NCBI GenBank assembly: GCA_040954595.2
Contig: CM082593.2
Coordinates: forward strand, 6,208,172 to 6,272,171
Source of the DNA: Balanoglossus misakiensis
Lineage: Eukaryota > Animalia > Hemichordata
Reading direction: 5' to 3'
Length of the DNA: 64,000 nucleotides
A model generated the notes under the pieces. That model saw only the letters and a list, made by a program, of their open reading frames with translations. It was not told the DNA's origin and ran no database searches. How positions within the stretch are numbered: the first letter of the stretch is position 1; the number at the start of each line of letters is the position of its first letter. The position numbers were made by a program, and so were the translations under genes. Shown piece after piece: positions 9,001 through 52,833 of this stretch.

Positions 9001-12000
9001 GGGCCAAACACAAAGACCCTCTGTTGAACCTGATCCGAATCCGGAAGCTCTTCCCGAACCAGCCAGCGGCCAACAGCGGTCTCATGCAGGAAGGGGACGT
9101 CATCTTAAAAGTGAACGATTCTGCCCTACACACACTGAACCATGCGGTGAGTGTCCTCTGCAGTCATGGATACATTATCCCTTTCACCACCATGGTTTGA
9201 CCCAAGACCATTGTGTACTATGGTGAAATTGGACCTCTACAGAGGAAAAAGGGGTTGAAAGGGTATAGATAGTATATGTCTTGGGGACAGATTTTCAAAA
9301 TATGATAGTCCTCCAAGAAGTATTTTTGAAACCAAAGAAGAAAACATGGTGTACACCATCTTGTTTTCATGAAAATCGCTACTTCAAATTTTCTTCATAG
9401 ACTTAAGACACAGATTTTCTTCACTTTTTTATGTATATTAGGAAACCGTCAATGTACTGCGTACGTCACCACCTGACGTTACCTTGGTGATGTGCCGGCC
9501 ACCCCCAGGAGCTCTCCCAAACAAAGAAACGGTAAGTTAAAACTTTGTGGCTTTGACATTTGATCCATCCATCCATCATTCATTGCAGGTATATACTGCG
9601 ATAATAGCCAGCAGTTTCTCATTTACATGTATCCGATATCTGTGGTTTATCCACACAAATAATCGATACTTTATTTGTTCTATCTTCCAGAGCAAAGGTG
9701 ACTATGACTCGGACAGTCCTCGCGTCACCCCGTCGCCGCAGACGATCCAAGCCGAAATCCAGCCGTCGCTAAGCAACCAAAACTCCTTCGATTCATTCGC
9801 GATGGACTCGCCGGCAGCATCGCCGGTCGCCGCAGCAACCAAGACGAAGAGACTGTCCTCGACGGAGACTCTGGCAATGGCAGAGAAGTCTTCGCTTGCA
9901 GACGATAGAGGTGTGATATCACCGGTCTCCGTGGAAACATCTCAAACATCATCTATGTCCACGCCGTCTCCCTCTAAGAGATCATCAATGCAGGGTGTAG
10001 GTTGACTTCAATTTTAACTCGACATAAATGTATACTGTGTTTCATAAAGCTTTATGAATTTAATAAGCCACCTGGCAGTCATATACGAAGAGGTTTTCTT
10101 GGAGTGCAGGCTTTGATAAAAAATAATTCAACCTTTTCACCACCATGGTTGAGTCCAAACCCATTATTTTCTATGGTCAAGTTGGACCTCTAAAGAAGAA
10201 AACTGGGAGTGAAAGGGTTACATCCCCCTCTAAATACTTCTGAATCCCTCCCTCTGTTATATTTTGTATCAACTGTGGTATTCAAATCTCTGTCCACCTT
10301 CACCTTGTCTCTACAGGAAACTATTGACGTGACGCTTCTGAAACCAGAGAGAGGTGGTCTGGGTTTCACGGTGGCTGGAGGTGTGGAATCAGGCGGCTGC
10401 TACATCAAGGGCATTGTGCAAGACCCGGCCAAGTCTGATGGTAGACTGAGGAAAGGGGATAGACTCATTAAGGTAAGCTGGTACTCGGACAAAAGTTGCA
10501 AGTACCTCAAAGTTTACGTTTAGTTTTATTTGTGTATTAAAGAGGAACGAATGTGTACACAACCAGTGGACTACTGCAGTGAAAAACATGAATTCAAATA
10601 ATGTCACATTTTCAACAACTTTGGTCGCTGTACAAAAATGAATGTATAAAACTATGGTTGCCTGCATTAGTATTAAACCGACACTTGCATTTTTTGTGAC
10701 CTTTGACGTACAGGTGAATGGTCACGACATGACCTCAATGAGTCATTTTGAAGCGGTCTCATTCCTTCGGACAACGCCGCAAGAGGTCAACATTGTTGTC
10801 TTGCGCCCGGTCGAATCGCCCGTCAAAACTGCACCTTCCTCTTCGAACGAGATGGCCATCGTCTCCATCAGACGCACCAACGCCGGCCATCTTGGATTGA
10901 GTCTCAGAAGCAGCGGTGGACACATCTACGTGGAGGATGTCACGCCTAGTTCCCCGGCGGACCAGAACGGCAACGTGCAGGCCGGCGATGAAGTGTTTGC
11001 CATCAATGGCACGCCCGTGAGAGGGGTCAGTTTGGGACAGGCCATGCAGATTTTGGACGATGCTGATCCTGTCGTGGATCTGCAACTCATCAGGTGGGTT
11101 TCTGTGCTAAAGCATTGATTTGAAAATGCCTGATTGTAAAAAATACTGTGCATGTGTTGTGCTGTGTTGCGAGGTAGATATCCAAGTCATGTGAATGGAG
11201 AATGTTACACAAAATTTGCCGAATATTCTTTCTAACTTGCATAAACTTTTTTTTACTTTCATCACAGAGATGGAATGCCAGTATCGGTGCAATCTCCGTC
11301 TGTTTCCATACCAACCAGTCCATCATCCTCTGTCACCAGTCCGTTACCCAGGCAACCGACGCCCTACATCCCCAACCAGGACAGTTTCTCCTCTCCTGAA
11401 CATCAGCCCAAGTCCAATGCCGATTCGGATATCGACATCGGCGAGCTGTCCTCATCTGAAAGCGAAGCTGAGGCAGAAGTCAAGGCGCACGTGCGGGGAC
11501 TGGTCGGCGCGTTCGAGACCAACCAACACAACGTGATCAGAAACAAGCAGTATGGCAGAAGCAAGGCACCGGTTCAACCCACGTCCAGCGACAGCGACGG
11601 GGAGGTCGTCGACAGGCAACCGATGCAGTCAACGGTTCAAGTGCACCAAGAAGTTGGCGGCACGAGAGACAACCCTGCTGAGGTGCGTCCCATTTGTAAA
11701 AACTCTTAAGCTGAGCATGCATTCCATTAATTTGTCTTTCTCCACGCGACAGAGCCTGGACCAGTTCGTAAATGTAGCCTTTGTTCTTATAGGGTGGTGT
11801 GATAAAACTAGAGTTAGTAAAGCCATCTAATGGAGGGCTTGGATTCAGCCTTATTGGAGGAGAGAAGGGCGGAATGACAGGTGTGTTTATCAAGACCATA
11901 ACTCAAGGAAGTATTGCTGACCAAGATGGCCGCCTACACGTTGGCGACAGGCTTTTACAAGTAAGAATGTTGGAAAATAAGTTAGCTAGTACTGTAAGAT

Positions 12001-15000
12001 TTTCAAGCCAACTTCAAATTTTAATGCACCCTGACCTATATGACATAATTTGGAAGTTTTTATGTGAGTCTGCAAGTTTGTTTTTGAGTTGAGACTGGCG
12101 ATGGTCACACGACAAATGTACAGTAATGCCAGGATGGATTAATTGCAAGTTGAATTTCTCGATTGCAGGTCAATAGGGAAAGTTTAGTGGGAATGACCCA
12201 CAACAAGGCAGTGGCCATTCTAAGGAAGACAAAGGGAACCGTGAAACTGGCTGTGTCCAGGTAAGTCTGGTCACATAAATACACGAAGTGGCATTTTGTT
12301 GTTGTATCCTTGATAATTTGTCTCTGTATAAGTACATGTATGTGTACCCAAAACTTTGCCTGTACATAGCTATGAATTTTGTACAACTGACATGCCAGTT
12401 CTCAACCCAGGAAAAGTGCCAGTACCTTAAGACTCAACACAGTGATGCAACAATAATTTGATACATCTCTTTCACAGACCCCCGTCATCTAGACCTCAAA
12501 GTAGGATCGGTCAGCCTATTGGGGACGAAGCAACACACAGCCAAACAAAGAAGACAGGTCAGTTTATCAAAAGCACTGATGTGCAGAACATTGCATTGAG
12601 CGATGTGCCCATATTTCCTTGGATGGCTACCCCCCTTATTTGAAGTGGTGTTTGTCTCAGAGCTGTTAATAAAATGTACTCATTCAGTTTTCTGGGGTTT
12701 TATCACACAGATGAATCTGACCACAGTGAGAGTATAGGATTCAGTTCCTCCGTCTCCCTGCCTCTCAGCCGCCAGAGTCCGGCCCACGCCAACCGCGGAT
12801 CCCACGGCTCGGGTCACAACACCGACAGCGACTTCGACGCGGCGTTCGATCTGCCCGACGATTCGTCGAAGCCTCGGAAGAAGCACGGCGCGGAGAGCGG
12901 CGGCGAGTCGAGCCCGTGGACCAGCGACGTGGACGTCCCCCTCGAAGATGGAAGCCTGTCGCCGACGCCCCGGGAGAAGTCGAACGCGACGAGCGTAGTA
13001 GTCAGCGACAGCGAACTCCTGCGCATGTTGTTGGTGAAACCGGTCAACGGAGGGCGGTACACCGGTAAAAGCTTGCAGAATATCATCGCTAACATGCAGA
13101 AGCAGATCGAGAAGCAGGACCCGGTGGAGGAGTACAAGGTATTAAAGATTGTAGCGTTGGCCGTTACTTTCCTCCAGTGTTGCTTCAAATGTCTGGTGTT
13201 TCTTTCCGCCAGTGATGCATGAAAATGTAGTTTATTTGGAACGTTCACAGTCTGTGAGGAGTGACTGTGGTACAATATATCTCTCACTTCATCAAACAGT
13301 GACTGTTTCTCTTGAATATTTCAGCAACTGCGTCTTGTCAAGGCGGTGGATGACTGCGAGACTGCCAAAAATCCAACCAACAAGGACAAGAACAGATACA
13401 GGAACGTGCTACCATGTAAGTACTTTAACCGTTATTCCAACATGATTTCCCAGACATAAATTCGTCAGGAATATTAGCGGAGACGCCTGTGCATTCAGTA
13501 AGCTATCTACGGTGGATGTATGACACAAAGAGTGAATCTCTTTTCTTTGATTTCGTAGACGACGTGACGAGAGTGAAACTGAAGGAAGGCGGGGCAAGCA
13601 ACTACATCAACGCCAGTCACGTACGATGGTCTGTGGGGAATGCGCCCTACCACTACATCGCGTGCCAGGGGCCGCTGCCTCACACAACCGGGGATTTCTG
13701 GCAGATGATCTGGGAACACGAGGTCAATGTCATTGCCATGGTTACCATGGATATGGAGAACGGAAAGGTAAAGATGCTATTGTGTTCTCAATCCAGTCCA
13801 TTGTCTCATTTTGGATTCATTGATGAATGGGTATGACTTGCAACAGATGTGAACATTTTTTTATTCATGACTTTCAGGTCAAATGTCACCGGTACTGGCC
13901 AGACAGTGTGGACACGCCCCTGATTGTCCAAGGTCGATTTGAACTTCAGATGACAGATCTCCAAACTCTGGAAAATTTCGACATCAGACATATTACGATG
14001 AGCGACATGAAGGTGAGCATTTTATGCACTGATATACAGGCACACCTACCATCCACATATAACATTGATATTTCAAGTATAAAATAGTTCTGTTTTACCA
14101 TATATTTTCTTGTTGTACTAGTTGACGGATGCATTTTCCTTGTTTTGTTTGTGTTCCTAGACTGGCAAAGAATGGAAAGTGACTCATCTGAACTTCACGA
14201 CGTGGCCAGACCATGGCGTACCAGTGTCTGGCCTCCCATTGGTCCGTTACATGCGTCACATGCGTAGGATACACAAGTCTGGACCAATCGTGGTGCACTG
14301 CAGTGCGGGGATCGGTCGCACTGGCACCGTGATCACCATCGATTTGATTCTTGCCATGATTGAGAGAGATCTGGATGTAAGTGAATTTACTTTTTTTTTG
14401 TTGGAGTGCATGCAATAATGGAGTGAACATGAATGTCTTTGAGATTCATATAAAAATACCGAGAGGTTTCTTTTTTGTTTTCATCCAATCAGTTGACATT
14501 TCTTGACAATTTTGAAACTTTCTGTTACAGTTCAGTATTCATGAAATAGTGCAAGGATTGAGAGGTCAACGGCAGGGAATGATCCAAACCAAGGTAAGAT
14601 TATTGAACTTTAACCCCTAAATTAGTCTATAAAAAATAGCCTGCAGCCTGTACATCTGTACAGAGAAATAAAAGCGTCCATCACCTGTGTTTATAAAAGG
14701 CCAAGAAATGTACCCAGGGCATTTGTGTGGGGACAAACATTAGACCTTTGTCTGAAACCTATAACTGTTTGTTACTTGTACGTTTATCTCAGATTTACGG
14801 ACGTTTTGTCATCTTAATTATAGCACAGACAATGAACTTCGAGAGACAAAAAGAAAGGTGTCTCCAGTGAAGCTTAAACCCTCCTGTTGACAAAATTTCA
14901 GATTCTGTCACTACCAATGACAAACCAGATTTGATTTACTAATGCAACTTCTCATGTGTTCCTTGCAGGACCAGTATATCTTCTGCTACAAGACGATTCT

Positions 15001-17824: not shown

Positions 17825-19875
17825 TCAGTAAAACCCATCTAATTTGTACCAGTTCGTGCTGCCATTCATCTCACTATCAGTGCACTCATTTGTTAAATCC
17901 CATTTTACCTGTACACATTTATATCTCATTCCTCTTATTACTCTTCCTGTTCCTGGTGGATCTCCATCCTGAAAAATATGATGCAATTATTAAATACCAT
18001 TTGTTATACTCTAAACTAGATCAGAAATATCAGACACAGATGGAACATTTGGTGTATCTATATTCACATGAATGATGTTGGCTGGAAAGTTTGAGACATA
18101 AGCTGTGAGTTAACGGCAGCAAACATGATAATAATAAAGAAAATGGTCATTTAATATCATATGGCATAATAAAAATGAACACATATTTCACCTTATTTCC
18201 TTGATCCCAATCTGGTCCCCGAACAACTACAGTTCCAACTTGCATTTCGGCAGCCATGTTTGCACCTTCAACAATAAAATCATGTGTGCTACCCATTAAA
18301 TCTGTGATTGTCTATTTTCCATGACAACAGTCAGTGGTTAAATTTGCATACTAGGTATTAAACTGTACCTTCAAGACATAACTCCAGTTTGAAAGCTAGT
18401 GAAAGTGAACAATATGAGTACTGCAGTGTAAACCCAAAGATATAACACCCGCCCTCACCGAGTTCTGTTTTATTTGAAGTTTTTGCAACGTGCCTCTGTG
18501 ACTTACCTGACATAACATGAATGGCAAATGGGGATCCGGAAATCTGATTATTGCCAACACATAACACCAGATTATAGATGCCTTCTTGATCTTCGCGAAA
18601 TGTGAAATGGTAACCGTTGGAAACATGTTTTGCTGATAATTGTTTAGTTGATCCATTTGGACTTGTAACTTTCGCTTCAAGTTTAACCTGGCCTTGTACA
18701 TTTATTTCCACACTTTCTCCAGTGATGGCAAATTTGGGGATTCTAGATCGTGTCACCTCCACTCGGACAATACCAAGAATCTCCTCTCTATCAATGATCT
18801 CAGTGTTTGGCTTAAACGTGACTTGCATTTCAGACGCACAGCGTATGGTTGTGGTTCGCAACATTTCATCAATGCGTCCAGTCGTTTGCTTGTGTAGGGC
18901 TACTATTTCATTGTCACCATAGTTAATCAGGACATTAATAAAGTCACAGACACTTGAAATATTCTTCTCTGCTATTTCGTATTGATCGATTTCGCATTCC
19001 AGATGCTTCTTCTCAGTATCATGGCATGCCTTCAGACTTTCGACCAACTTTTCCTCGTCTTTTCTAAGTTTCACGATGGCTTCTTCTGTGTGAGTTTTGA
19101 TCTTTTTCAAATCTTGTTGGTGACGGTCAAGAGCATCAGATAACTCTTTCGTAACCACTTCGACGCTCTCACGAGCCTCTGCTTCTTTAATTCGGAGTTT
19201 TTCCAATGGATCCTGTAAAGTCTTGATGAAATCCGCAGTAAAATCTTTAAGAGATTTATGTTGATGGTCAGGTCCCGGTCTGTGGTCAAGGACCAGGCAT
19301 TCAAGACAGATTGGCTTTTCGCAGGAGTCACAGTAAATCTTCACAACATTTTCTTCGTGAGTTTCACAGAACATCGGCAGACGGTACGAGGATACCTTGT
19401 CAACTCTTTCAGTTTCGCTCCCTTCGTCATCCAGCCCCATCAACCTATGTCCCCTGTTGATGCTGATCTTCGCGTGACCTTTGACACACTTCTGACAGAG
19501 ATTAATTTGACAGTCAGCGCACCTCTTTTCTGCAACCCCCTCTTCGCAAAAATCGCACCTGACCCCTTCAGATTTGCTCGCTGATTGAGATTTGCACGCT
19601 TTCACGTACTCTACCAAACCGTTGATGAGGAAATTTGAGCCCATGAGAGCCACGGTCGTCTCACCCGGAAGTTTGATGTCCTGTCGACACTCCGGACATT
19701 TTGGGATTCCTGAACTTTTCTTCACTAGCGTTGCCAAACATCCCTCGCAGAAAGAATGTAGGCACTGTAAAGTCTTGGCATTTTTGTAGTACTCTTGGCA
19801 AAGACTACAGGTCAAAAAATCCTCGGCAAGTTTTCCCAAATGATCACCACCGAGTGACGAACTAGCTGCAGCCAT
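17825..19875 (-). CDS. TRIM/RBCC E3 ubiquitin ligase: RING - B-box1 - B-box2 - coiled coil - filamin-like repeat - MIB/HERC2-like domain (~528 aa, 3 exons)
   Basis: Exon 1 is 19875-18507: RING CSLC..CLHSFCEGC..CPEC; B1 CDFC..CADC..LCQKC..H..H; B2 CETH..CDSC..CLEC..H..H; filamin-like VTSPNG..GIYNLVLCVGNNQISGSPF. It ends at a perfect TCAG|GTAAGT donor. Exon 2 is 18265-18192 (ANMAAEMQVGTVVVRGPDWDQGNK). Exon 3 is 17968-17825 (DGDPPGTGRVIRG..VQVKWD..WYKLDGFY*). Phases 1/0 fit. Confidence 0.85.
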
Positions 19876-20142
19876 GTTCGTATATTTTATCCTCTTTCGT
19901 TTTGGTTTTCTCAGAAACGTGGGTCACTGACGTCATAACTGTGCTTCATTTTCATTGGACGATTTCGCCAGAGTTGGAAATTTATGTATAGAGAGTGTAT
20001 TTCAAAACATCTAATCATGATTTAGCTGGAAAATACTCACTTTTCAACAACGACAAAATTTGGGCGTTTGGAAGGACGAGGAAGTGCTTTTCTGGTCTGG
20101 TCCGACCCCTGCCCCACTTTTTGCCGCTGGCTGCGCTGTGCC

Positions 20143-21711: not shown

Positions 21712-24700
21712 TTAAAATTTATCCGTTTTTATTCTATCAATGACGGTATCCTCTTGACTCGGAAAATGGAACGAGTCATAAGACGGGTTGTCAATGGCAA
21801 CAGGGCTTTGACCTTTAACCTTCCCAGAATCACTCGTGGGTGACGAGGGTTCAACCGGTTCACAGTAAGGCACGGGATCATGTACTTCATCCGATTCAGC
21901 AAATTTATTTTCCGCGACTTCATTTGATTCCTCTTGGTATGGCTCATTATAGAAGTTACTTGTTTTGCTTTCGTCTGGGTTGATGCTATCGTCCTGAAAT
22001 GTTGATGGAATATAGAGAGTGTGAGAGGTTTCCCATTAAAAGAGAGATGATCAGATTTTGTTTATAGGGGAAGGGACAATACTGGAAAGAATGAATGACA
22101 GAAAACATGGTCCAGTTAAATTTGAATCCAACTGATTGAAAGTATGAGCCAGTACACTATCCAGATTTCTAAAGATGTGTGTCTCAACTTATTTATTGGT
22201 AAACAAGATTTCCTTATAGGATTTGAACTCGGACGTAATCCCTGCACATTCAAATTCAGAATGTGCTTGACAGCCTGATGACAGGGTGGGCCTGCTGATG
22301 ACCAAGGGTCAAAGGTCGAAACCTACCGCGTTGATTTGTTTGAAGGAGTCTGCTTCGTTTCGTGTCATAGTCACATCATCGTAGGCTGGGTTTGTAAAAA
22401 CCGCCGAGTCAGGACGGCCGGAGAAATAATGTGTCTTGTGCGTCACATGTTTCCTGCAAAGAGAAAGAGCCTCTTGAATGTAAAGATGTGTGCAATTGAA
22501 AATGCCTTTAGAACATTTTCCTGTAGTCTTATAGTAATACATCTAACCACCTGTACATCTCAAATATTAATTTGGTGTTTGAACTTTCTACATTGACAAA
22601 TTTGATAAGATTTGATTTCAGGATGTAGCCCCAGGAATTTTTCATATTTGATACAAGTGTATTAAAAATACATAACTATCTGTATAACAAAGTCATTAGA
22701 ATACACACCTGCAGATGATGATTAGAACAATGATGATAGCCAACACCACCAAACAAGCTATCGCTATGCCAATGCCGATGGCCAGGCTGCGTCTTTTCTC
22801 TGCTTTTTCTGTCGGATGAAAAGATATCAAAATATGTAGCGAGACATTTATATTTATCATGATGGCAATATAGCATTTCAGAAACTAGCTATGGTGACAC
22901 TGTATCCTTTCACCCCCATTTCCCTGTAGGGAGGTCCAACCTTGCCACTGAGAACAATGGAGTTTGACCAAACCATTCTGGTGAAAGGGTTCACTTGAAC
23001 ATCCGAAGTAATACCCACTTCTACGACAAAGGTGGACATGAGATCTAGCCAGGTTGTCCATGGGAGTACTATAACCTAATTGTTTGACTGCAACACTTAC
23101 CTAATCGACTCCTTTCAGACTTTGTCAGTACTTTCTCCTCGCACCTCTTCCCTGTGAAGTTTCCATGGCAACTGTTACAGGAGAAACAATTGCAGTGTTT
23201 GCAACAGTTTAGATTAAAATCAAGATAGGGCTAATGAAAAAGTTGACTCAATCAATTTTCCCTGATTTTCAAAGATTGCATTTCTTTCAAAGAGTGGATG
23301 AGCAGTCCAAGAAGTTTCAGAGTCTATGAACCCTGAACGAACACGATACCATATCATACTCATAATTGTCACATAATCTCAGCCTGCAGTGAATGTCTCG
23401 TAGAAAGAAACCAGCATTTACTCACATGCACTGTTGTTCTGGCGTTCCGTCCACGGTGACTTGGAAACAGGTGCCACCATTCATGCAATAAGCATCAGGA
23501 GATGCGTCGTCCTCACAACGGATGTGTCCCCTCCGACTCGTGTCTTCTCTGGTGGGCTCGACGGTGTCCTGGGTGTCTGTACTCACTGCGGTCGTGTCAT
23601 CTTCTTCTGTCACACTCCCTGTGTGTAAACAGTGAAGAGAGGTCAAACGGTGATCCACAAGACACAAACAACAGAGGTGATAGTAAACCTGAAACTAGAG
23701 TAATACTATACTATATATGACAAAAATTGACCAGAAAGTTTGTCCATGAACTCACGGCTTTAATAGTTAAGTGGTGATTTAAAATCATGCCTGTCTTGTC
23801 AGGAATTGTCGATAAGCATGTATGACAGCTAAGTATGAAAGAATAAGAAAAGATGTTGGTTTGAGAGAGATGGCTCTACCTTTCGTAGTTACAATGCGGG
23901 GAGAAGATGTCGATATCGTCGAAGGCGAAACTGTTTCAAGCAGAGGAGGTAGTGTTGCTAGCGACGGGGAAGAAAAGCACTCGTCGGAATTATCCGGAAG
24001 GCTGGAACAGTCGAGTTCCTCCGGCCAGGAAAGACCCTCCTCCAGAAAAGACGCCAAGCAGTTGTCACGCGCCGTCTGACAGAATGTACGACAGGGAGGC
24101 AGCACGTTGCCTCTGTCGCAGGGCGGCACGAAGGCAGAGCAGAGCAAGAGATGCAGATTACGGTCGCACGGAGAAGACAGCATAGGGGAATACAACGCCA
24201 GGAAAATCTCAGCTTCTGATTGAGACGAGTGGCCGGCAAAGTTGGGGAAACCGGTCAGTGAGTAGGGAAGATCTTGACACTGTGGAATGTGTATAGCTTC
24301 GCAGAAAACTGGAAAAATAAAGCGAAAATAATAACAGAAAAAAAAAATTAAAAGTGCATGGTTTGATTTGCTGTGCAGATTAACTCTTCTGCCAGAGAAT
24401 TGTGTTATTTATTTTATTTGGAAAAGTTTTTCGCAGACATCAGGAAAGCTGGTTGCAACAGACCCCTACCCCGACACAGCTTGGTTCGAACCTGATGACG
24501 TCATATGCTTGGTTGGAGTCATCTACTTTAAATAGGGGTGCAACCCACTGTAAAATGATGTATGACTGACCTGTGCAAACTGGTACTGGATGACTCCAAG
24601 CGCCATTATTGCAAGTGACAATGTGCGCGCCAGCTAGCATATATCCTCTGTCGCAATCAAACGCTACAGTAGTGTAGGCTCTGTAGTTGGGTGTCCCAGT

Positions 24701-27700
24701 CTGAGATCCATGGGCTGGACTACCAGGATCAGAGCAATCAGCTGAAAGATATAAAAAAAAATTGTTCACATGAACCCACACTGCATGTATTAAATGGGCA
24801 ATACAATTAACCAGCTCAGAAATCAATTGATACCCTACTTGCAAAACCTGAAGATTTTTTGATAGCTTATTACATTGACAGTTCCACTAATGTGCATTAT
24901 TCATAACCTTGTAGGCTGTACTGATTGGAACCATAGACCCAGTGGAGAAAAAGGGTCTATGTTGGAACATACCATGTTTAGAATTGATATTTATCAATCA
25001 CTTACCAATACACTGTGGTAAGGGCAGTGACCAGGTGCTATCAGACCGACAGGTGGACACAGGTGCACCAATCAGACTGTAATTCGGGTCACAGCTGAAT
25101 GTAATCTGAGACCCAACAATCGCTGGGAAATTTGAAAATCCGCTGACCATATCAACATCACCATTTGTCAAATCACCAGGGTCAGGACAGCCTGTGGCAA
25201 AAAAATATGTTTGAAGCTATGACTCATAAATGGTATAGTTGATCAGTTTTGTATCACAATGTACATTGTAACTAAAAATTTGTTTGCGGGCAGCTCTGGA
25301 CAAAGTATCATGATTAGGCAGATATTTCAGCAGGGCGCATATATGAGCTATAACACTGTACATGCAAAAGGTATTTTGTCAGCTGGATATCTGTACTATT
25401 AGTACATATTTGGTCAGGGTATACTGGACTATGAGGTATATGTGTCGATATACATGTAATGTAGGCAGTGTAGTCCATTAAAGCCCTGGGTAAACTTTAC
25501 CCATTACTTTCAACTTTTCTTTAAGGCAAATATACTGGGATAAACTTGTAACTATACTTCACCTGGGTGTAGTGTTGTCGTGCTGATTGGCTGCACTGTT
25601 GTCGGGACGTAGTCCACAGAAACGCACTCAGGATGCGATCCGGTGGAGAACAGAAAAGTCATCTGGCAGTCGATGGGCCATTCGATTCCTATCGCGCCCA
25701 ACATCGGCTGGCAGTCGTCGCGCACGCGCTCACACAGCGACTGGCAGGGTGGCACCACGCCCCGGTCGCCGCACTTGGGCAGGTACAGAGAGCAGACCAG
25801 CAACTGGAAGTGGTCGGAGCAGCCCAGGTTGACGAACGTCTGAAAGGAGTCGAGCGCCGACGCGACCTCGCTCTGCGTCTGGTGACCGATGGTGTTCGGG
25901 AGGCTGGTTCCGTTGTACAAATCTTGGCACATCGCCACGGAGACGGGTTCGCAGAGGTCACCCGGTGCTGACGATGGAACACAAAGTGGGCATCGTTATT
26001 TATTTGTAAACATGACAACATCTTAATTCACCTAAAAGTGTTTTGATATAAACATACATGTATAAGATTCTTTTCACCCAGTCTAAGTATTGGCAATGGA
26101 ATGTGACCAGAAACCTGAATGTCTGCCCGATAAAATCAGAGTATGATAAATTGTGAAATAAAATTATTAGTAGATTAGATTAGCCAATTCAAATAACCTT
26201 ACGTGGAGCATGATCTTCTGAAACACAGTTGGGAGAAGAGTCTGGGCTGAAAAGCAATGTTATCTCACAATCCATGGGCCATGGCAATCCAAACCCATCT
26301 AGCACTGGTTTGCAGTCATCGCGTACATGTTCGCACAAGGACTGGCATGGCAGTATGACGCCACTATCATCGCACTTGGGCAGGTACATTGCACAAACCA
26401 GCAACGAAAAATACTCGGAGCAACCAATCGCGATGAATGGTTCAAAGCTTTCTAGCGCTGATGAAACTTCACTCTGGTTTTGGTGGCCGACCATATTAGG
26501 CAGTCTTGTCCCGTCGTAGAAATCTCGACACATCTCCACGGTGACCGCTTCGCACTGGGAGCTTCCTCCTCCTCCTCCTCCATCTTCACCGGGTCCCGGT
26601 GGACCGACGCAAACGTCGCCGTCCTCGGAGCTGGGGAAGTTGGAGCAGCTGAGGAACGGCGGCCATTCAACATTGATCTGCGTCAGCATTGAATTGCATC
26701 CGTCGTAGGCAGACTGACACACTGACCTGCACGGCGGTACGATGCCGTCTGCCCCGCACTTTGGATGGACCACGGAACACAAAAACAGAGGCAGATACTC
26801 AGAGCACTGTACCTGCATAACGAGCGCCATCTCACCCAGGGTGCTTTCAGCCGACGCCTGGTCACTGTCGAAAAAGTAATTGGGGTACGTAGTCTGATTA
26901 TACGGGAGGTGAGATCGACATGTTTCGCTTGTAAGCAGTTCACAGCTTGCGGGTGCACCCGGAGTAGTTTCAACAACGCCAGCATTTGGAGTTGTTGCTG
27001 GCGTGAATGTTGTCAGACTCAACTCAACACTGGCAGGTTGGGCTGTTTCAGCCACCGTGGCTGGTGCAGCTGTGGTAATGTCAGAAGCGACTGTCGTCGT
27101 CTCCTCGGTAACAAACTCGATACACTCGTGTTGCGGGAAGGACGAGCAGTTCAGGTTCTCCGGCCACTCAGCGCCGTACCAATTCACCAACGCGATGCAG
27201 TCCTCGTACACCAATTCACAGGCCGACCGGCACGGAAACCGCACGCCGTCCGAGTCGCAGTACGGGTGGTAGACCCCGCAGACAAACTGACCGATATACG
27301 GCGAGCACTCGTACTGGATAAACGACGAAAAGTAAGTCAGTTCGAGATTAGCATCCTCGTGGTTTTGGTGTCCAATGAAGTTAGGGTACTGTGTGCGGGT
27401 GTAGTTCACGTGATCTGCACACAGAGAACTCCGCAACACCTGACAGCCCGACGGTGATGTCACATCCTGTCCTGTGAATCATGGGAAGAACGATATATAT
27501 CAAATCATAACACCTCTTATTTAGCCTCACAAAAGGGCACTGTGCATACTGTGTTGTGATTTGCTAGAATGAGCCACGTGATAGGAAATCAGAATGACTA
27601 TTTCCCTAGGGGAATAGTTACAGGATCTACTACCCTGTAACACATAGGCCTGGCCTATTTTCAAGCTAGAGCACCTGTATATGCATTTTAATTTGGCTCT

Positions 27701-27914
27701 TGGTATAATGGATAGTGATATCTAGAATACATAAAACAGATTTAGTGCATTATATTTGCTCTGAATTCAGGCACATTCAAACTTGTTATCCTTCATCACC
27801 AGGTGTATTTCATATCAAACAAAATGTACAGTACTTACCACCACTGAGACAGACCAAGCCGAGAAAAGGAAGAATAAAAGTAACCAGGACAGCAAATCTT
27901 CTTGTACAGATCAT
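21712..27914 (-). CDS. Type I membrane protein: signal peptide - 4x Frizzled CRD - 2x Sushi/CCP - Frizzled CRD - EGF (ErbB-ligand type) - TM - cytoplasmic tail with two NPxY (~1102 aa)
   Basis: Exons: 27914-27839 (MICTRRFAVLVTFILPFLGLVCLSG), 27471-26203 (FZ1-3), 25967-25563 (FZ4), 25191-25006 (CCP1), 24741-24571 (CCP2), 24308-23880 (FZ5), 23618-23426 and 23171-23101 (EGF), 22808-22709 (TM LAIGIGIAIACLVVLAIIIVLIIIC), 22453-22327 (FTNPAY), 21993-21712 (IDNPSY, TAA). All are GT-AG, phases join, total 3309 nt. The FZ cysteine pattern (C..C..YPN..GH..C..C..P.C..PCRS.C..C..WP..C..C) occurs five times. Confidence 0.9.
22903..22993 (-). mobile_element. ~90-bp piggyBac-type MITE copy (reverse orientation)
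   Basis: cctttcacccccatttccctgtagggaggtccaacctt..accaaaccattctggtgaaagggtt is the reverse complement of the family consensus. Confidence 0.75.
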
Positions 27915-31087: not shown

Positions 31088-31808
31088 TAAGTTTACACGA
31101 TAAAATGGGTTGTTTTCGCAGTTTTTTTTCGTGGTTGATTGCAATAAGGATGTGTGCTTAACAATTTTAGCGGGGTTCCTCTTGTATCAACCGCGGAGCT
31201 ACTCCGTGGATCAAGAGCCAACTGTGCAGACGTGTCTGGTTTGAAATTTGTGTTCTATCTACCCGATACGATGTGACCTGTGTACCTGCTCGCGCTAGGA
31301 TCAATACTACACGTAGATTTTGACCCCATTGCCATATTAAAGGACCTCGGTGGTAAAACCACAGGCTCTGGACTGATTACCACACTCCACAACTGTGGGT
31401 GGTCGGACTACATGTCAATTTCTTGTTGTCAATGTTGACAAACATTCACACCTAAACAGTTGTCAATTTCAAACTTAGTGCTATCTCTCCTCTGGTACTG
31501 TCCATTGTTATGTTTATGCTTGTAAACACCTTGGACTTTGTTGCTAAAACTTAGTCTGTGCATTTTTCTGCATAATACATTATATGCTTATTGCTAAGAG
31601 TGAGAACAGACCTTGAGAAAAAGGATGTTTTCAATTGGATGACCTTGAGTGACCGTGACTTGAGTAACCAATTGAATCGGATTTTAACTACCTAAAACAC
31701 CGGTGAAAAGCTGTCACTTGGTTTCATTTTTTTATTTCCAGAAATAAGAACTTCGCCTGCTGAGCATCCGCAGCAATCACCAGATGCCAGTCTCCTCATC
31801 ACAGGGAC

Positions 31809-33620
31809 ATGTTTAGCAGAAATCTGATTTCATCATCAGCCAAGATTGTGAGCGGTGCAACTTGGTGCGCAGGTCCGAACGTTGTTGCGGTCGGTTTGCC
31901 GAAATCCGCTGGACCATGTGTGGTGTCAGTTCGATGCTACGCGCAGAAAAAGGAGAAAAAGCAGCAGATACGTAACAGACGCGGCGTCAACTTCGACACG
32001 TTCGGAACATGGGACAACCGAATAGATCTCCCCATCTTACTCGACGAGAGCATCGCACACGGCAAACCCATCCCCAAAGTCTCGCTGGAGCACGTTGGCC
32101 ACGCCTCGCTGATCGGGCGGAGACAGGCCAACGAGGACAGGATTTGCATCAAAGAACTGGTTCCCAATCTGTTGTACTTTGCCATATTTGACGGACACGC
32201 CGGATCTGTTACCGCCGACTATGCCTCGGTTCATCTTGAAAAACACATCAAATACTGGCTGGATCAAGAAGCTGACTTGGAAGTTGTGTTAAAACAGTCA
32301 TTCGTCGACCTTAACAACACATTTTCAAGACACATGCATTATCAATATGCAAGTATGTATATTTCAATCACTTACCAAGTTCTCAGTTGATCGAATAAAA
32401 TCTCATTGCCTTACAAAAAAATAAGACTTATTGTATTGGACATAAACTTTCGAGTAGTTTCCAAGACTAAATGATGGTGAAAATATTCTTGTTTAAATGC
32501 AATAAATAACTACTTGATGTGATAGCACAAAATCCAAGCTTGTCTGACCTCATTTTAGGGGACAGTCTCAGGGCAGCAGCCCATATTGACAAAATTGTGC
32601 CACTGACCCTTGACCTTTACCTTGTCGACAGATTATGAGCACTACGTGACAGGATCGACAGCCACAGTGTGTTTGCTGCGTAACAGCATCAAATTAGTCG
32701 TCGCGAGTGTAGGCGACAGCCGTGCAATATTATGTCGTGAGGGGGTCGCCAAGCGACTGACCAAAGACCACCAACCTGAGGACCCGGACGAAGCCTCTAG
32801 AATCAAAGAAAGCAAGGGATTTATCAGGTAAGTGAAATAATTCACTAGTACACGCAATGTCCCATCCAGGATGGGTACCTGTCCTGATACCATTCCAGAC
32901 TTAAGTGGAGTGAGAAACTACTGCATGTTTCTTGTTTTAGTGTAAGAATGATAGTGTCACTGTCATATTTAATGATTTTGTTTTGTAACTTTCAGCTGGA
33001 ATAGTCTTGGGACAGCGTTGGTGAATGGTTCACTGACTATGACAAGAAGTTTTGGTGATTTGCCATTGAAGCGATTCGGGGTCACTTCAGAACCGGAAAC
33101 TCAGTCACTAGAGGTTAGTAAGAGTTACTATGGTTACATGATTAACTGGCTGTAGCAGTTACATTTTGTTGATCCATGTTAATTAGAGAGAATTTCCTTT
33201 GTCATTTGCAGTTATACTGAGAGCTGCATGCAAATTGGAAATTTGGTTGTTGCACGTGCCACGGTGTGACAAATCAACTTGTAAAATGTTTGACAGGGAA
33301 TGATTTACTATGGTAATCTTTTTGTGATGTGCTAAACCGTATCTGAAACATTGTCCCTGCAGATCAAACACAGCCGCGACAGCTTCGTGGTGTTGACAAC
33401 GGACGGGGTGAACTTCGTCATGAACGACCAGGAGCTCTGCAACACAGTGAGCCAGGCGAACGACCCGTCGGAGGCCGCCCACCGACTCGCCGACCAGGCC
33501 CTGCAGTACGGAAGCGACGACAATGCCAGCACCCTGGTGATCCCGCTGGGGATGTGGGGGAAATTCCGGAATCCCTCAACGTACAGTTTTACGAGGAATA
33601 TGATCGGCAATCGATACTGA
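31809..33620 (+). CDS. PPM1K: Mitochondrial protein phosphatase 1K (PP2Cm), ~371 aa, 4 coding exons
   Basis: Exons 31809-32352, 32632-32827, 32996-33113, 33363-33620. [30 protein letters not shown] matches the PPM1K N-terminal signature. PP2C motifs [36 protein letters not shown]. Basic, acid-poor presequence. Confidence 0.93.
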
Positions 33621-34679: not shown

Positions 34680-36707
34680 GGACACGGTGGTCCCATTGAA
34701 TTATTACACAAGAAAAAGTCTACACCGAAGTACATGGCCATATACAGACACACACACACACACACACACATAGCGAGAGGTCAATGGGCAAACACTGACT
34801 GACCAATGGCATATGTACTGTATATACACTAAATAGAACAGCTGGCCTCTTTAAAACTTAGCCAGTTATGTAATCATTCAGGAATTTGCTGTGTTTATAT
34901 GAATCACAGAGGGGAGTTCCTGCCTAATTAAAACAACTCAATAAAGTAAATACACACTACTTTGCAAAGCAATCTGACCAGTAGTTCTTGAGTTACTGAG
35001 TTTTGACCAAATTCACATTTTTCCAGTCATTTGCATATTTTTGGCAATGACAACTTCATTTGAACAAACTCCTATCTACAGCCCAGCCTGCATCAGCGCA
35101 CTGAATATCAAGGTGATACACGCAGCGGTTTTCAAGTTTTTGATGTGGACGGACATACATCCATCCATGCATACATACAGACGCAACCGAAGGTCCCATG
35201 GTACATACCAATGGGACCCAACAACAATCTAACATCGGACTGTCGACACAGAAATCTGATGGGACGATGAATGCCAAGATGAACTGTATAGCTCTCAAAT
35301 CACAGCAAAAGAAGGCAATACAAAAGCTCGGGGAACATGTTGCGCTGACCTGCGTTAACAGATCCCGTGAGGAGTACGGTGCCCAGAGCGCTAACACATC
35401 CCCAAACTCCCGCGACCTCTTTTGCACACAACAATACAATGGCGGACTCGCGCGAGCCTCTCACAAACATAAACATCCCTGTGTCTACAAAATGAACACT
35501 GTATAGCTCTCAAATCACAGCAAAAGAAGGCAATACAAAAGCTTGGGGTGTGTTGCACTGACCTGCGTTAACAGATCCCGTGAGGAGTACGGTGCCCAGA
35601 GCGCTAACACATCCCCAAACTCCCATGACCTCTTTTGCACACAACAATTCAATGGCGGACTCGCGCGAGCCTCTCACAAACATAAACATCCCTGTCTCTA
35701 CAAAATGAACACTGTACAGCTCTCAAATCACAGCAAAAGAAGGCAATACAAAAGCTCGGGGAACATGTTGCACTGACCTGCGTTAACAGATCCCGTGAGG
35801 AGTACGGTGCCCAGAGCGCTAACACATCCCCAAACTCCCGTGACCTCTTTTGCACACAACAATACAATGGCGGACTCGCGCGAGCCTCTCACAAACATAA
35901 ACATCCCTGTGTCTACAAAATGAACACTGTACAGCTCTCAATTCACAGCAAAAGAAGGCAATACAAAAGCTCGGGGAACATGTTGCACTGACCTGCGTTA
36001 ACAGATCCCGTGAGGAGTACGGTGCCCAGAGTGCTAACACATCCCCAATACGAACTCATGGACACAAACTATTTATATTTCTAGGTCCAAAACTTTAACT
36101 ACAGTGAGACAAAACTGTTAGGCTTTTCTCATATTTAAATCAAGTATTGAAATGCAAAGTAAAGTGTTAAAATGCAAATTAAGACTGACTGGAGTGGTTC
36201 TTCTTTTCTCCAATGAAGTTCAACTTTGCTCAATGGGCAAACACTGACTGACCCATAAGCTGCCAATGGCATATGTACTGTACATACACTAAATAGAACA
36301 GCTGGCCTCTTTAAAACTTAGCCAGTTATGTAATCATTCAGGAATTTGCTGTGTTTATATGAATCACAGATGGGAGTTCCTGCCTAATTAAAACAACTCA
36401 ATAAAGTAAATACACACCACTTTGCAAAGCAATCTGACCAGTAGTTCTTGAGTTACTGAGTTTTGACCAAATTAACATTTTTCCAGCTAATTTGCATATT
36501 TTAGGCAATGACAACTTCATTTGAACAAACTCCCATCTACAGCTCAGCCTGCATCAGCACACCAAATCTCAAGGTGATACACACAGCGGTTTTCAAGTTT
36601 TTGTTGTGGACGGACATACAGACATACATCCATACATACATACATACATACATACAGACGCAACCAATCCCATAAGGTCCCATGGTACATACCAATGGGA
36701 CCCAAAA
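34680..36707 (+). mobile_element. Composite non-autonomous Helentron/HINE-like element: two ~440-475 bp direct copies around a tandem array
   Basis: 34781-35221 and 36230-36704 are near-identical. Each ends in a (CATA)n microsatellite, then a hairpin GGTCCCAT..ATGGGACC, then an A-rich stretch. A 10-bp GGTCCCATTG at 34689-34698 is the inverse of CAATGGGACC in the hairpins. Confidence 0.6.
35283..36047. repeat. Tandem array of a ~215-bp unit, ~3.6 copies
   Basis: Units start at 35283, 35498, 35711 and 35926 (actgtaYagctctcaaatcacagcaaaagaaggc...). They are nearly identical; unit 2 has a 2-bp deletion. Confidence 0.95.
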
Positions 36708-37962: not shown

Positions 37963-40770
37963 TTACACTTCCAGAGTTCCGACATGCAATCCATCACTGC
38001 CTGTTCCCAGATCAAACGAAGGACTCCTTTTCATTTCCTTCTCTCCATCCTTGAACGGATTATACTCAAAGTCCTTGCCTCCGGCATCGTCGTCGTCCCG
38101 GAAAACCTGATCTCGGATGTCGGATCCGGACGTGCGGCCCGCTGTTGCGCTGTCTTCGTGCTCGTCCTCAGCTTCTTCAAATCGGTCGTAATCTTGACCG
38201 GAGGCCCCCTGGTCTCCGAAGCTCCTGGCTTTTATGGTGTGGACGCCGTGCAGAATTGCGCTTACTAACAGCATTATTCCTACACAAAAAACAGCGAAAA
38301 CGTGAACCGATTAGAGCTTCTCAATGCGTTTATAGTTTCAGTGGCCACTGGTAAGTGATGTCATTCACAGATACACTCACTTTGATCACTGTCAATATTT
38401 TCACCGAACAAATTTTTTATTTGTCTTAGCTGCGGTTACACGGTCGATGATGACATGAATGAGTAGGGTTTACAGGTGCTGGTTACCAGTAATAATCAGG
38501 ACATTATCGAGATTATGAAGCATGCCAACTGATGCCGATTTTACGTACCTAATATGCAGTTACCATAGCAACAAGAATGGTGGCGCATATAAAGGTGCAT
38601 TGTGGGATACGTTTGTATTTATATGGCAGACCGTTGTCAAGTTAGCACACAAACACAGTGTCGTCAGAAGGCACATTGTCGACGCAAGACATGGATGAAA
38701 CACAAATAAAAAAACAAGTCAACAAGCAAAACTGTAAGTTGGCAAATGGGGAAAACTGTAAGTCCTTTCAGGTATAAAGAAAATAAAGCTAAATACTGTA
38801 TAAATACTACATACAAATATTACTGCAAAAGATTAATTTAATCTATAGATATTCCATGCAGGTAAAGTTATAATTTCAATCATACTGCATAAAAGTGTTA
38901 TAAACTACAAATAGTACTTGTTAAATAAATAAATACTAGTTCGATGTTTTAAATAGTGTTGCCATGGCAACGTTTTAAATGTGGGAATATTGGTATTTCT
39001 CTTTTCTGGCTTCCTGCTGTTCCTCTGTGACCTCTTCTTTGTGGAAAGTTTTGATGGAGTACACCAAACCCAGCAAAATCATCAAGGCACCTTGAATTCA
39101 AAACGTTGTGAATTACACTCAAGTGTGGATGTGTCACTAAACTATAATATCTATAGCGGGTGGAGTAATTTCAGCTGACTCAATGAATGGATTGAGTGTA
39201 TCAGTGACATAGGAGATTGGTTAGTAACAAACGGACAGTGAATCAGGATGCCAGGGGCTGGTGTCACAGTGCCATCCAGTGAGGTAATAAATAATGAAAG
39301 CTCTGAATATTTAACTGGGTCTTACCTGAGATGACGGCCAGCCACACTGTGGTGGGATTCAGAAAACAAACAATGGACAAAATCACGTATAAAATACTTC
39401 GCTTCCAGTTGTCAATCCACGTGACTATGCTCCAGCATTTGAACATGCAGGACTCCTCTCTGCAAACAAAATTAGTATTGAAGTCACATTTCCCGGAATT
39501 CTTTTTTGTACAATGTGAAAGCGACATGGAAACACAGGCAACACTACTGAAAGAAACTTTCTTTGTTTACAATAAGACCTAAGATCTGCTCAAGCTACAG
39601 TAAAAGTTACTTTGACTGTACTTTTACATCATATAAAACCTTGCAAGTCACAGGACTGAGTAGCAGTATGCTTTGATAGAAATGTAATAAACTACTGAAA
39701 AAATACCTACTTGCAACACCTTGTGGCACATTTGTCGAGGATGAAAAGCGTTTCCAAAAAAGTAACCAGTATTGCTGTGATGCTGCAGAAGGAAAATGAA
39801 TACTTTATCAATAAACATTAAAACATGAGTCATGATAATAGGTAGACATGTCATGATATATAAGGTCATGATATAGGAGTCATGAGATCATGAGTAACGT
39901 AGTATTATGGGAAAGGAAGCCAACGAGTTGAGCTTAACCACAGATGAAAGAACATGAATCAACTTACAGGAGATAAAGACCAATTTCTGCATGGGTTCCA
40001 CGATTCACAACTTCAATTCCAATGCCCCATAAACCTGTAACAGTGAGTAAACAAATATTAAGATTTTTTTTCTCATGACATTTCAATGTTTTGGGCGTTT
40101 CTTTTAATATGTTTAATATGGTTTTGATTTTAAATATTAATATTTAATATGCATATGCCCTTTTTGGATCGCCTGTCATTTCAAACGTGTATTGTTTTAG
40201 ACCAGTTGGGGCGCATTCCATTTCAATGCAAATTTTACGCTTCAAATTGATATATTGCAATTGTTATTAACTTATTTATAGCTACGTTGACTGTCTTTCT
40301 CTAATGTAGAATTCTTCTTTCAGCGATCGTAAAAACTGAATAGCCTACTGCCAAGGTCGCGGCGACTGCGACAAATAGCCCCACTGTTCAGGGGCAGCCG
40401 ACCGCGACCATTCCGACTATGCGAACGACCAAAGAGTGTTTGTACAACACTCACTCGCACAACTGCAACTTGGAGATTGCGATCGCATAGATGACGACCG
40501 AGTATTGCTCAGTGCACACACACAACGAAATAAACGTGTAGTTTTGATCATATGATCAGTACTTGTTGCTGGTACAGCGTACCGTATTGTAGAAAGACTC
40601 ATGGATTGCCAGAGTCATAGCGAGTTCATTCATCATGCAACCTCACCATCGAGGGCAGTGAAAGTCACGTACGTACCTACGGCTGTAACGATTCCCCAAA
40701 CCCTAGTTACGAACGTAAAATGGTCCCACACAAAATTACAACATCCACATCTGTCTCTGCCTTCTGCCAT
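37963..40770 (-). CDS. TMEM72: TMEM72-like four-pass membrane protein (~227 aa, 5 exons)
   Basis: Exons 40770-40677 (MAEG..VWDHFTFVTRVWGIVTAV), 40034-39968 (GLWGIGIEVV..IGLYL), 39782-39711, 39459-39326 (WKRSILYVILSIVCFLNPTTVWLAVISG), 38279-37963. Phases join. Resembles vertebrate TMEM72 (recalled LAYLLLSVACFLHP..VW..IPG). Confidence 0.75.
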
Positions 40771-51500: not shown

Positions 51501-52833
51501 AGCAGCTAATCACCAGTGTTACGGAAGTCAACACTACAACAACACAGTATATTACACCATATTTTTTTCACTGTGGGTATGTGTGTGTAAAATCCGTTTC
51601 TGTACATCACATTGCTATAATATCGGACACGAATCTCCGCACACACTTACGTCGTCCGTCCACGAGAAGAGACTGCTCCTCTCCGTCGAATTGCCCGTCG
51701 TCCATCCATTGGACGCCGACAAGTTAATCTCGCCATGGTGCTCGATGATTGTGGGCGACGACCGACCGCTCGTACACGGCGTAACGTAACTGTTATTGTA
51801 ACTATTAATGGCTTCGTTTACAGTCTCTATGTATTGAAACGGCAACACGTCGTCTTCTACTCTCTCCGGTAGCGGGTGATTCTCACCCCGCGATGCGATG
51901 CCGCGACTGTAACAGAACAGAGACAGTTGAAACTGTTAGAATCTATCAGAAATGTTCCCGACTTCATGAACCTTAGAGTGATTAAAACACAGAGGTCCAC
52001 TGCTAAACAATTGGCATATACCTGGCAGGTTGTGTGTACGAGAAGAGACGAGAAAATTAAAATATTCCATGGTGATATCCCTTTACTTCCTTTCATGTGG
52101 ACGGACTGTGCTTTCATGTATGTTTGAATTACAAACCGTGTATTTCACATTAAATCCCAGCATTTCAATTTAACAAAAGACTAATAAAAATGTAATACTA
52201 GTACACAACTTTCAAGAGAAAACCAGATTTTTTTCAACGTGTGCAGGATTTCAAATGAAAGCAAATGGTGCCCACATGTGTGTGATTAATTTATTGCTGA
52301 TTTCAGAGTGACGTGTACACTATATTGCTGGCTTCCTCATTTTTCGGGCCAACACTCCCGAGCGCAAACATGAATTAACTGTTTTTATAAACAGAATTAC
52401 TGCTTGCATTGACTGAGCTTAAAAGCATTAGCCAATACTCAGTCAGGATATGTTGTGTACACAGACCTAGTAAAAGTTGAGCAAACTACATGTGCATATA
52501 AGTACAGCGTGGCTGTAAATACCATAACACCTTTCATTTCTAAGCTATTCAAGTCTTTTCAGAATGAGAGAGACACGTTCTTCCAAAGAATCACTGAGAT
52601 GGTATAAACTCGACAAAAGTCAAATCGTTCTGGCCCATTTACTTTGTTTCACTTCTGAACAATCTGTCGACGCCTGGCTTATCTTGTCGTGGACTTCACA
52701 TCGCACAACGCATAGACTCCATACACTGACTTTTATTCAGCGCAATTACCCGTCGGCACATATTTGGCCCCCTGTACTGGTTTCTAAGTTACATTCCAAT
52801 ACAAAGAAAGCCACCTTGAAGACTGCCTGTCAT
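45582..52833 (-). CDS. FAM149B1: FAM149 family protein (DUF3719; FAM149A/B1 co-ortholog), ~597 aa; identity of the first exon is uncertain
   Basis: Exons 51906-51651, 51106-50967 (EFDKRAARTVRHMFEEIDSTLFE..LAQECKDWKARFPHLR), 50818-50675 (ILGEQL), 50173-50012 (EEEIFESDGCVEEYLAYD), 49851-49661 (GFPPITP), 49327-49179, 48944-48847, 48579-48406, 47400-47262, 47003-46875 (RPNTTHTFR), 46562-46463, 45652-45582 (TAG). Candidate start exon 52833-52793 is low confidence. Confidence 0.85.
47033..47118 (+). mobile_element. ~90-bp piggyBac-type MITE copy
   Basis: ttaacccttccaccgcaatggtttggtcc..tttctatggtaaagttgga..ggggtgaa. Confidence 0.65.
50864..50958 (+). mobile_element. ~90-bp piggyBac-type MITE copy
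   Basis: ttaaccctttcaccatcatggtttggtccaaatccattgtctactatggtcaagtcgg..aaagggtaa. Confidence 0.75.
51181..51271 (+). mobile_element. Degenerate MITE copy
   Basis: ttcacccc..tggtttgatcgcattgttt..aggaactgggggtgaaaggggttaa. Confidence 0.6.

Follow-up and report, generated by a model that had tools for sequence, protein, structure and literature searches.

What does a membrane protein do that carries an array of Frizzled cysteine-rich domains (CRDs), the Wnt-binding module, and, next to its membrane anchor, an EGF module resembling that of ErbB ligands? Such a protein is encoded on the minus strand at positions 27914-21712 of a 64,000-nucleotide stretch of contig CM082593.2 of the acorn worm Balanoglossus misakiensis (this whole stretch is called the window here). 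The initial annotation viewed it as a possible physical link between the Wnt and EGFR pathways. We find that the gene belongs to a real acorn-worm family in which Frizzled, Sushi, EGF and transmembrane (TM) segments share one chain, and that all four known members carry an FxNPxY motif in the cytoplasmic tail. We tentatively favour, at a probability of roughly 0.45, a protein that would act as an endocytic scavenger of Wnt-type ligands and that probably arose when CRD and Sushi exons were joined to an ErbB-ligand-like gene; EGFR agonism would then be a dispensable side function.

Eleven exons splice into one stop-free frame of 1102 residues, from an ATG at 27914 to a stop codon at 21714-21712. 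All ten introns are of the GT-AG type and 235-371 bp long, with phases in the order 1,1,1,1,1,1,2,1,2,0. Pfam, run exon by exon on the single exons of the gene, identified three Fz domains in exon 2 (E 8e-74), one each in exons 3 and 6, and Sushi domains in exons 4 and 5. For the EGF half-exon the score was E 0.025, under the cut-off. Hydropathy added a signal-like N-terminal stretch and a single TM helix at about residues 942-966. The resulting order, signal peptide, four CRDs, two Sushi domains, a fifth CRD, linker, EGF module, TM helix and tail, is that of the initial annotation, whose 11-exon reading frame and Thr-rich segment before the EGF module also hold, and the orthologous chains described below agree with it. 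The parts of the gene are as follows.

27839..27914, minus strand: exon 1, ATG and signal-peptide-like hydrophobic stretch, residues 1-25 (hydropathy; GT donor)
26203..27471, minus strand: exon 2, CRD1, Ser/Thr-rich linker, CRD2 and CRD3 (PF01392 three times, E 8e-74)
25563..25967, minus strand: exon 3, CRD4, 61% identical to CRD3, with Cys9 displaced two residues in both (Pfam, CRD hidden Markov model)
25006..25191, minus strand: exon 4, Sushi/CCP 1 (Pfam E 3e-12)
24571..24741, minus strand: exon 5, Sushi/CCP 2 (Pfam E 1e-10)
23880..24308, minus strand: exon 6, CRD5, with partly polar lipid-groove positions, and the beginning of the Ser/Thr linker (Pfam, groove mapping)
23426..23618, minus strand: exon 7, Thr-rich linker, dibasic site and EGF module Cys1-Cys4 (spliced frame)
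23172..23425, minus strand: phase-2 intron separating EGF Cys4 from Cys5, a gene-structure hallmark of ErbB ligands (criterion of PMC1618406)
23101..23171, minus strand: exon 8, EGF Cys5-Cys6 with the Arg41 equivalent (23146-23144) and Leu47 equivalent, then a charged stalk (spliced frame, contact-residue test)
22709..22808, minus strand: exon 9, end of the stalk and TM helix, residues 942-966 (hydropathy)
22327..22453, minus strand: exon 10, membrane-proximal tail with the FxNPxY motif FTNPAY at 22398-22381 (four-species C-terminal alignment)
21712..21993, minus strand: exon 11, distal part of the tail, acidic, with a second NPxY at 21789-21778 and the stop codon (spliced frame, alignment)

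RefSeq holds orthologues with Frizzled, Sushi, EGF and TM segments in one chain from three further acorn worms: Ptychodera flava (XP_070545285-97), Glandiceps talaboti (XP_077999276) and Saccoglossus kowalevskii (XP_006819459 / XP_077867355). All are labelled uncharacterised, and their precomputed domain lists show Fz and Sushi and no EGF. Identity between the window protein and P. flava isoform X8 is 57% across 1124 aligned columns, and P. flava is the closest relative among the orthologues seen, sharing a common CRD3/4 type (support 100/100). The window, P. flava, Glandiceps and Saccoglossus proteins have 5, 6, 3 and 5 CRDs (the Saccoglossus model being partial) and, by Pfam, 2, 2, 1 and 2 Sushi domains. 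The genes also share a neighbour: a PPM1K orthologue, 70% identical to that of P. flava, lies 4 kb upstream in the window (31764-33620, plus strand), and in the other three species PPM1K sits on a contig matching that of the FZ-EGF gene in size (35,945,698, 18,482,504 and 332,157 bp), its accession being the next number after that of the FZ-EGF protein in Glandiceps and near-adjacent in P. flava.

We therefore reject the idea that the Frizzled and EGF/TM exons belong to separate genes, given their single chain in three other genera and the compatible intron phases. A fusion of adjoining genes by prediction is very improbable for this model, which was built from DNA; the introns are short and GT-AG, and Frizzled and EGF segments occur together in 10 of 10 P. 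flava isoforms. RefSeq isoform sets are usually backed by RNA alignments. The TM helix and FxNPxY are present in 9 of the 10 isoforms, the last CRD is skipped in 4, and isoform X7 stops right after the EGF exon, without TM helix and tail. In the window, reading through intron 8 (23100-23069, minus strand) ends the frame 10 residues on, a possible secreted form resembling X7, and in intron 10 (22326-22197, minus strand) a stop comes early and an AATAAA lies at 22197, so that a short-tail form resembling P. flava X3 is possible. An AlphaFold model of isoform X8, from a three-row alignment, had a mean pLDDT of 31.

The family appears to be confined to acorn worms. When 1.84 billion representatives were scanned by HMMER with the EGF-TM-tail segment of P. 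flava, 163 matches reached E 0.001 or better. Among the best 150, which were listed, only the Glandiceps (E 1e-56) and Saccoglossus (E 4e-47) proteins matched across the tail besides the query cluster, these two were the only CRD-bearing proteins among the 149 other matches, and no orthologue from outside the acorn worms was found. The Glandiceps C-terminus as query returned the same three species only (5 matches among 432 candidates). Searching with exon 2 recovered, from 2995 candidates, three isoforms of the P. flava protein and two multi-CRD proteins of echinoderms, 5 proteins in all; this search was of limited sensitivity, as the Glandiceps and Saccoglossus orthologues were not recovered by it. 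The echinoderm proteins P0004 (nine CRDs) and P0005 (four CRDs) share a C-terminal domain without a Pfam match. Amphioxus P0088 (Branchiostoma floridae XP_035693825) has a similar EGF-TM-FxNPxY end and was rejected as an orthologue because its ectodomain is of the DB/FN3 kind and its match reached just E 3e-5; with the order DB-FN3x3-mucin-EGF-TM and two FxNPxY motifs, it forms a parallel in which a capture ectodomain is combined with a ligand-like EGF module and an endocytic tail.

The domain combination thus is real and lineage-restricted and apparently undescribed. In the literature searched, which left subscription papers and most genome-paper supplements outside, no title or abstract described a Fz-Sushi-EGF-TM architecture and no paper was found to give the four locus and accession identifiers. 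The available parts of PMC11414264 and PMC3516229 do not mention it. A survey of EGFR ligands (PMC4914847), which took in known architectures only, lists two other Saccoglossus ligands, and its 'EGF' entry is, as far as visible, another sequence, rich in repeats.

In the four-species alignment of EGF module, TM helix and tail, the longest invariant run is AVFTNPAYD, 9 residues compared with 5 for the next, about 20 residues inside the membrane. FxNPxY is present in the tails of all four orthologues and a second NPxY in three; the motif arose by chance in 418 of 200,000 tail shuffles. Among 114 rows with a juxtamembrane EGF module, FxNPxY occurred in 4/4 family members, 0/10 neuregulins, 0/7 Ig-EGF proteins, 1/70 small proteins, 1/10 other large proteins and 3/13 multi-EGF proteins. 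Non-Cys identity between the window and P. flava proteins is 86% in the proximal tail and 78% in the TM helix, followed by 69% in the EGF module, 55-72% in the Sushi domains and 44-67% in the CRDs. FXNPXY is the coated-pit signal of the LDL receptor (PMC2133019), and NPAY in LNX1 is a ligand of the Numb PTB domain (PMC3162930). The tail motif is likely to be a conserved internalisation motif of the LDL-receptor type, a prediction made from its sequence.

The ectodomain is compatible with a capture function. All five CRDs have 10 Cys, and CRD1, CRD4 and CRD5 scored 82-89 bits against the best Frizzled/sFRP structures compared with about 27-30 bits for Smoothened (near 30 in the exon-2 search), which places them closer to FZD/sFRP. 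When the lipid-channel positions of Fz8 (PMC6873803) were mapped by Cys and Trp-Pro anchors, hydrophobic residues occupied 4, 5, 5, 5 and 3 of the five positions in CRD1 to CRD5; CRD5 has Ser and Glu at two of them. Glandiceps CRD1 and Saccoglossus CRD2 keep Gln71, Pro74, Ile78, Met122 and Phe127, with Phe/Tyr at 72 and Phe at 125. The grooves are thus compatible with Wnt binding without demonstrating it, because echinoderm CRD arrays score alike. Phase 1 is common to the first six introns, those flanking the CRD and Sushi modules, and between species CRD number ranges from 3 to 6 and Sushi number from 1 to 2, which together argue for assembly by exon addition.

The EGF module probably descends from an ErbB ligand. 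It lies 21 residues from the TM helix, counted from Cys6, as the initial annotation had estimated, and is the one EGF module detected in each of the four orthologues. In the window gene, where gene structure was examined, the phase-2 intron 23425-23172 splits a codon between Cys4 and Cys5. Both ErbB-ligand traits (Stein-Staros), the C4-C5 intron and the juxtamembrane position (PMC1618406, PMC12485627, PMC11686035), are therefore present. Equivalents of Tyr13, Leu15, Tyr37, Gly39, Arg41 and Leu47, the six contacts listed by the initial annotation (Tyr13, Leu15 and Arg41 are also given in PMC1618406), are all found in the window and in P. flava, in agreement with that annotation. Controls, drawn from matches listed in the HMMER scan and hence biased towards the query by retrieval through similarity, carried all six in 2/137 non-juxtamembrane repeats, 35/97 single juxtamembrane modules and 10/18 NRG/Vein-type modules; only the combination is informative, because Arg41 alone occurs in 65/137 repeats. 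The five best of 67 PDB matches of the P. flava module at E 10 or better were neuregulin-1 (E 1-3e-6), with Notch1 fragments close behind (E 3.5e-6, 5e-6) and then EGF; the window's exon-7 half-module alone matched EGF and NRG1 at just E 0.5-1.2. In an Atlas search the top clusters, at 0.90, were those of pro-neuregulin-4 and gurken-like proteins; shuffled proteins reach that value in 4-10 of 100. An earlier Atlas search, a lead only, gave 0.80 for gurken-like and spitz. The C3-C4 gap of 12 residues is close to the 13 of most neuregulin matches and the 12 of Spitz-like matches compared with 10 in human betacellulin and epiregulin, so the statement that only the C1-C2 gap differs from EGF does not stand. 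A dibasic site lies just ahead of Cys1 in three of the four orthologues. The ligand-type character proposed for the module is thus upheld by the intron, the neuregulin-1 matches and the rare six-residue signature; ancestry from a ligand is likely because of the first two together with the Atlas clusters, and EGFR agonism by the window and Ptychodera modules is plausible on these sequence grounds.

Agonism, however, is probably not the function that keeps the family conserved. Glandiceps has His at the Leu15 position and Thr at the Arg41 position, with an Arg one position earlier, and Saccoglossus has Lys and Gln, respectively; the same two of four orthologues thus lack both residues, so agonism would not be family-wide. 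Arg41, whose contact on EGFR is Asp355, hardly varies among known ligands other than tomoregulins (PMC1618406). It is kept in 18/18 NRG/Vein-type modules and in Saccoglossus NRG, and the EGFR of Saccoglossus keeps Gly-Asp-x-Phe at the contact site, that is, the equivalents of Asp355 and Phe357 (supplement of PMC4914847). Of the Wnt-EGFR linker first proposed, the architecture and the ligand-type EGF module stand, the idea of a conserved linker is weakened by these losses, and the FxNPxY motif had been missed; a dual-pathway function is possible, with a lower likelihood than that annotation gave it. A tree of 114 juxtamembrane EGF modules (52 columns; rows without a detectable TM helix, including Vein-like P0154, were dropped) groups the family (support 92) within a weak 93-row ligand-containing group (support 80), apart from LRP-like rows. 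Next to the family in this tree stand two proteins of mucin/SEA-like type and a small EGF protein (support 80), and 71 of 108 forks are open. Hidden Markov model profiles of ligands (17), repeats (137) and multi-EGF juxtamembrane modules (13) did not discriminate, two Spitz-like controls scoring higher on the repeat profile. Among other P. flava proteins, P0030 (XP_070544757), annotated LRP4-like, is built like pro-EGF, with YWTD propellers and EGF repeats; its final EGF module has all six ligand positions, and its contig matches that of the FZ-EGF gene in size.

We suggest the following role. In an ancestor of the acorn worms, symmetric phase-1 CRD and Sushi exons may have been joined ahead of an ErbB-ligand-like EGF-stalk-TM cassette. 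CRD1-4 would capture lipidated Wnts, and the FxNPxY tail would recruit clathrin or PTB adaptors so that the cargo is internalised; shedding or a TM-less splice form could free a soluble CRD decoy. The EGF module would have stayed ligand-like in the window lineage and P. flava, where it may activate EGFR, and decayed in the two others, a decay perhaps allowed by NRG and the pro-EGF-like gene P0030 covering EGFR signalling. Since key residues are gone from two other lineages, EGFR activation would be a side function that the protein can do without. Several points weigh against a Wnt scavenger. Signalling and recycling adaptors dock on NPxY motifs too, which makes endocytosis one reading among others; hydrophobic groove positions are largely set by the fold, and unrelated echinoderm CRD arrays keep them equally well. 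In Corin, Sizzled and MuSK, Fz domains serve purposes other than Wnt binding. With 71 of its forks open and 52 columns, the EGF tree leaves the origin of the module undecided; the window module, with six contacts and 69% non-Cys identity to P. flava, as high as the best CRD, fits retained agonism; and family comparisons cover only four species.

A first rival is a true ErbB-ligand precursor, in which ADAM-type shedding would free an EGFR agonist, the CRDs would bind Wnt and the tail motif would serve precursor turnover only, coupling the two pathways. The two gene-structure traits, the six-contact signature, the dibasic site and the TM-less forms, X7 and the intron 8 read-through, speak for it; we nevertheless consider it doubtful, given the replacement of Arg41 by Thr/Gln and of Leu15 by His/Lys in two species beside a Saccoglossus EGFR that retains its side of the contact. 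The same two traits are shared by mucins, meprins and IMPG2, none of them a verified ligand (PMC1618406), and NRG and P0030 are other acorn-worm candidates with an intact Arg. A composite for the window and Ptychodera is in our estimate somewhat less probable still: Wnt would be cleared by FxNPxY endocytosis, and the shed or TM-less form would be an EGFR agonist of neuregulin type joined to a Wnt decoy, so that one gene would switch between Wnt removal and EGFR activation, its agonist arm having decayed in two lineages. Slightly behind it we place an endocytic or adhesion receptor of the LRP/MALRD1 kind, in which the EGF module would simply be a stalk element and the CRDs would bind a protease, lipid, lipoprotein or EGF-type factor rather than Wnt. 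LRP-like C-terminal fragments with juxtamembrane EGF and FxNPxY (P0077, P0104, P0118) are among the matches listed, a MALRD1 cluster reached 0.89 in the Atlas search, multi-CRD arrays occur in the unrelated P0004 and P0005, and the displaced Cys9 of CRD3/4 and partly polar groove of CRD5 fit; EGF binding, for which the CRD may be responsible, has been reported for sFRP-3 (PMC2424011). The C4-C5 intron, long C3-C4 loop and NRG1 best matches point instead to ligand ancestry, the tree separates the family from LRP-like rows, though with support of just 80, and some orthologous CRDs retain near-Frizzled groove residues.

Known systems each share part of this design. Neuregulin and EGF/TGFa/Spitz-type precursors have the single juxtamembrane EGF module, C4-C5 intron, long C3-C4 loop, stalk of about 20 residues and type I TM helix, and the TM-less P. 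flava form has its counterpart there; the acorn-worm ectodomain, in contrast, consists of Fz CRDs and Sushi domains, the tail carries FxNPxY, and Arg41 is not family-wide. Neuregulin membership is rejected, as Pfam scans of the window and orthologue proteins gave no Ig I-set or PF02158 (NRG intracellular domain) match. The LDL-receptor family, LRP1/megalin and MALRD1 share repeated capture modules, juxtamembrane EGF, TM helix, FxNPxY and second NPxY, but in the acorn-worm protein Fz CRDs would do the capturing, MAM is absent and the EGF gene structure is of ligand type; membership of the LDL-receptor family is rejected in spite of FxNPxY in all four orthologues, since the Pfam scans found no LDLa or YWTD. 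The sFRP, Frizzled, Corin, MFRP, ROR/MuSK and Sizzled proteins have 10-Cys CRDs, and the similarity of the acorn-worm CRDs to those of FZD2/3/4/7 is about that among themselves. Unlike these proteins, the acorn-worm chains have 3-6 tandem CRDs, a single-pass anchor and an EGF module, and lack 7TM, kinase and protease domains; the absence of a netrin domain in the Pfam scan and the presence of a TM helix exclude sFRP membership. Tomoregulins (TMEFF1/2) place follistatin-like morphogen-capture domains before a ligand-type EGF module lacking the conserved Arg (PMC1618406); they differ in the capture domains, in the Arg, kept in two of four acorn worms, and in the FxNPxY tail. The RefSeq orthologues share the C-terminal cassette and PPM1K linkage with the window gene and differ from it in CRD and Sushi counts.

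Among deuterostomes, acorn worms serve as a main model for regeneration and for the patterning of the head-to-tail axis by Wnt. If the scavenger role is correct, a single-pass protein would be a new, unrecognised shaper of acorn-worm Wnt gradients, and should the EGF module prove active in only some of the species, these proteins would form a natural series from growth-factor precursor to endocytic receptor by exon shuffling. The apparent confinement to acorn worms limits the general reach. Domain-based surveys miss such EGFR-ligand candidates, since the published one took in known architectures only (PMC4914847) and Pfam leaves the module at or below its cut-off.

Among the neighbouring features, a multi-exon gene at window positions 254-15000 (plus strand), with FERM, several PDZ and tyrosine-phosphatase domains, is presumably PTPN13-like by architecture. 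In humans, PTPN13 and PPM1K map to 4q21-22 and share that chromosome arm with EGF, BTC, AREG, EREG and EPGN, and the PTPN13/PPM1K neighbourhood lends weak support to an old link with the ErbB-ligand region. Directly downstream of the FZ-EGF gene is an intronless TRIM-type open reading frame (18358-19923, minus strand) with RING, two B-boxes and a Filamin repeat. Exon-like open frames without a confident Pfam match lie at 37963-38310, 48422-48712 and 51615-51935 (all minus strand), and a tandem array at 35283-36048 has a 215-bp unit in 3.6 copies with 96% matches.

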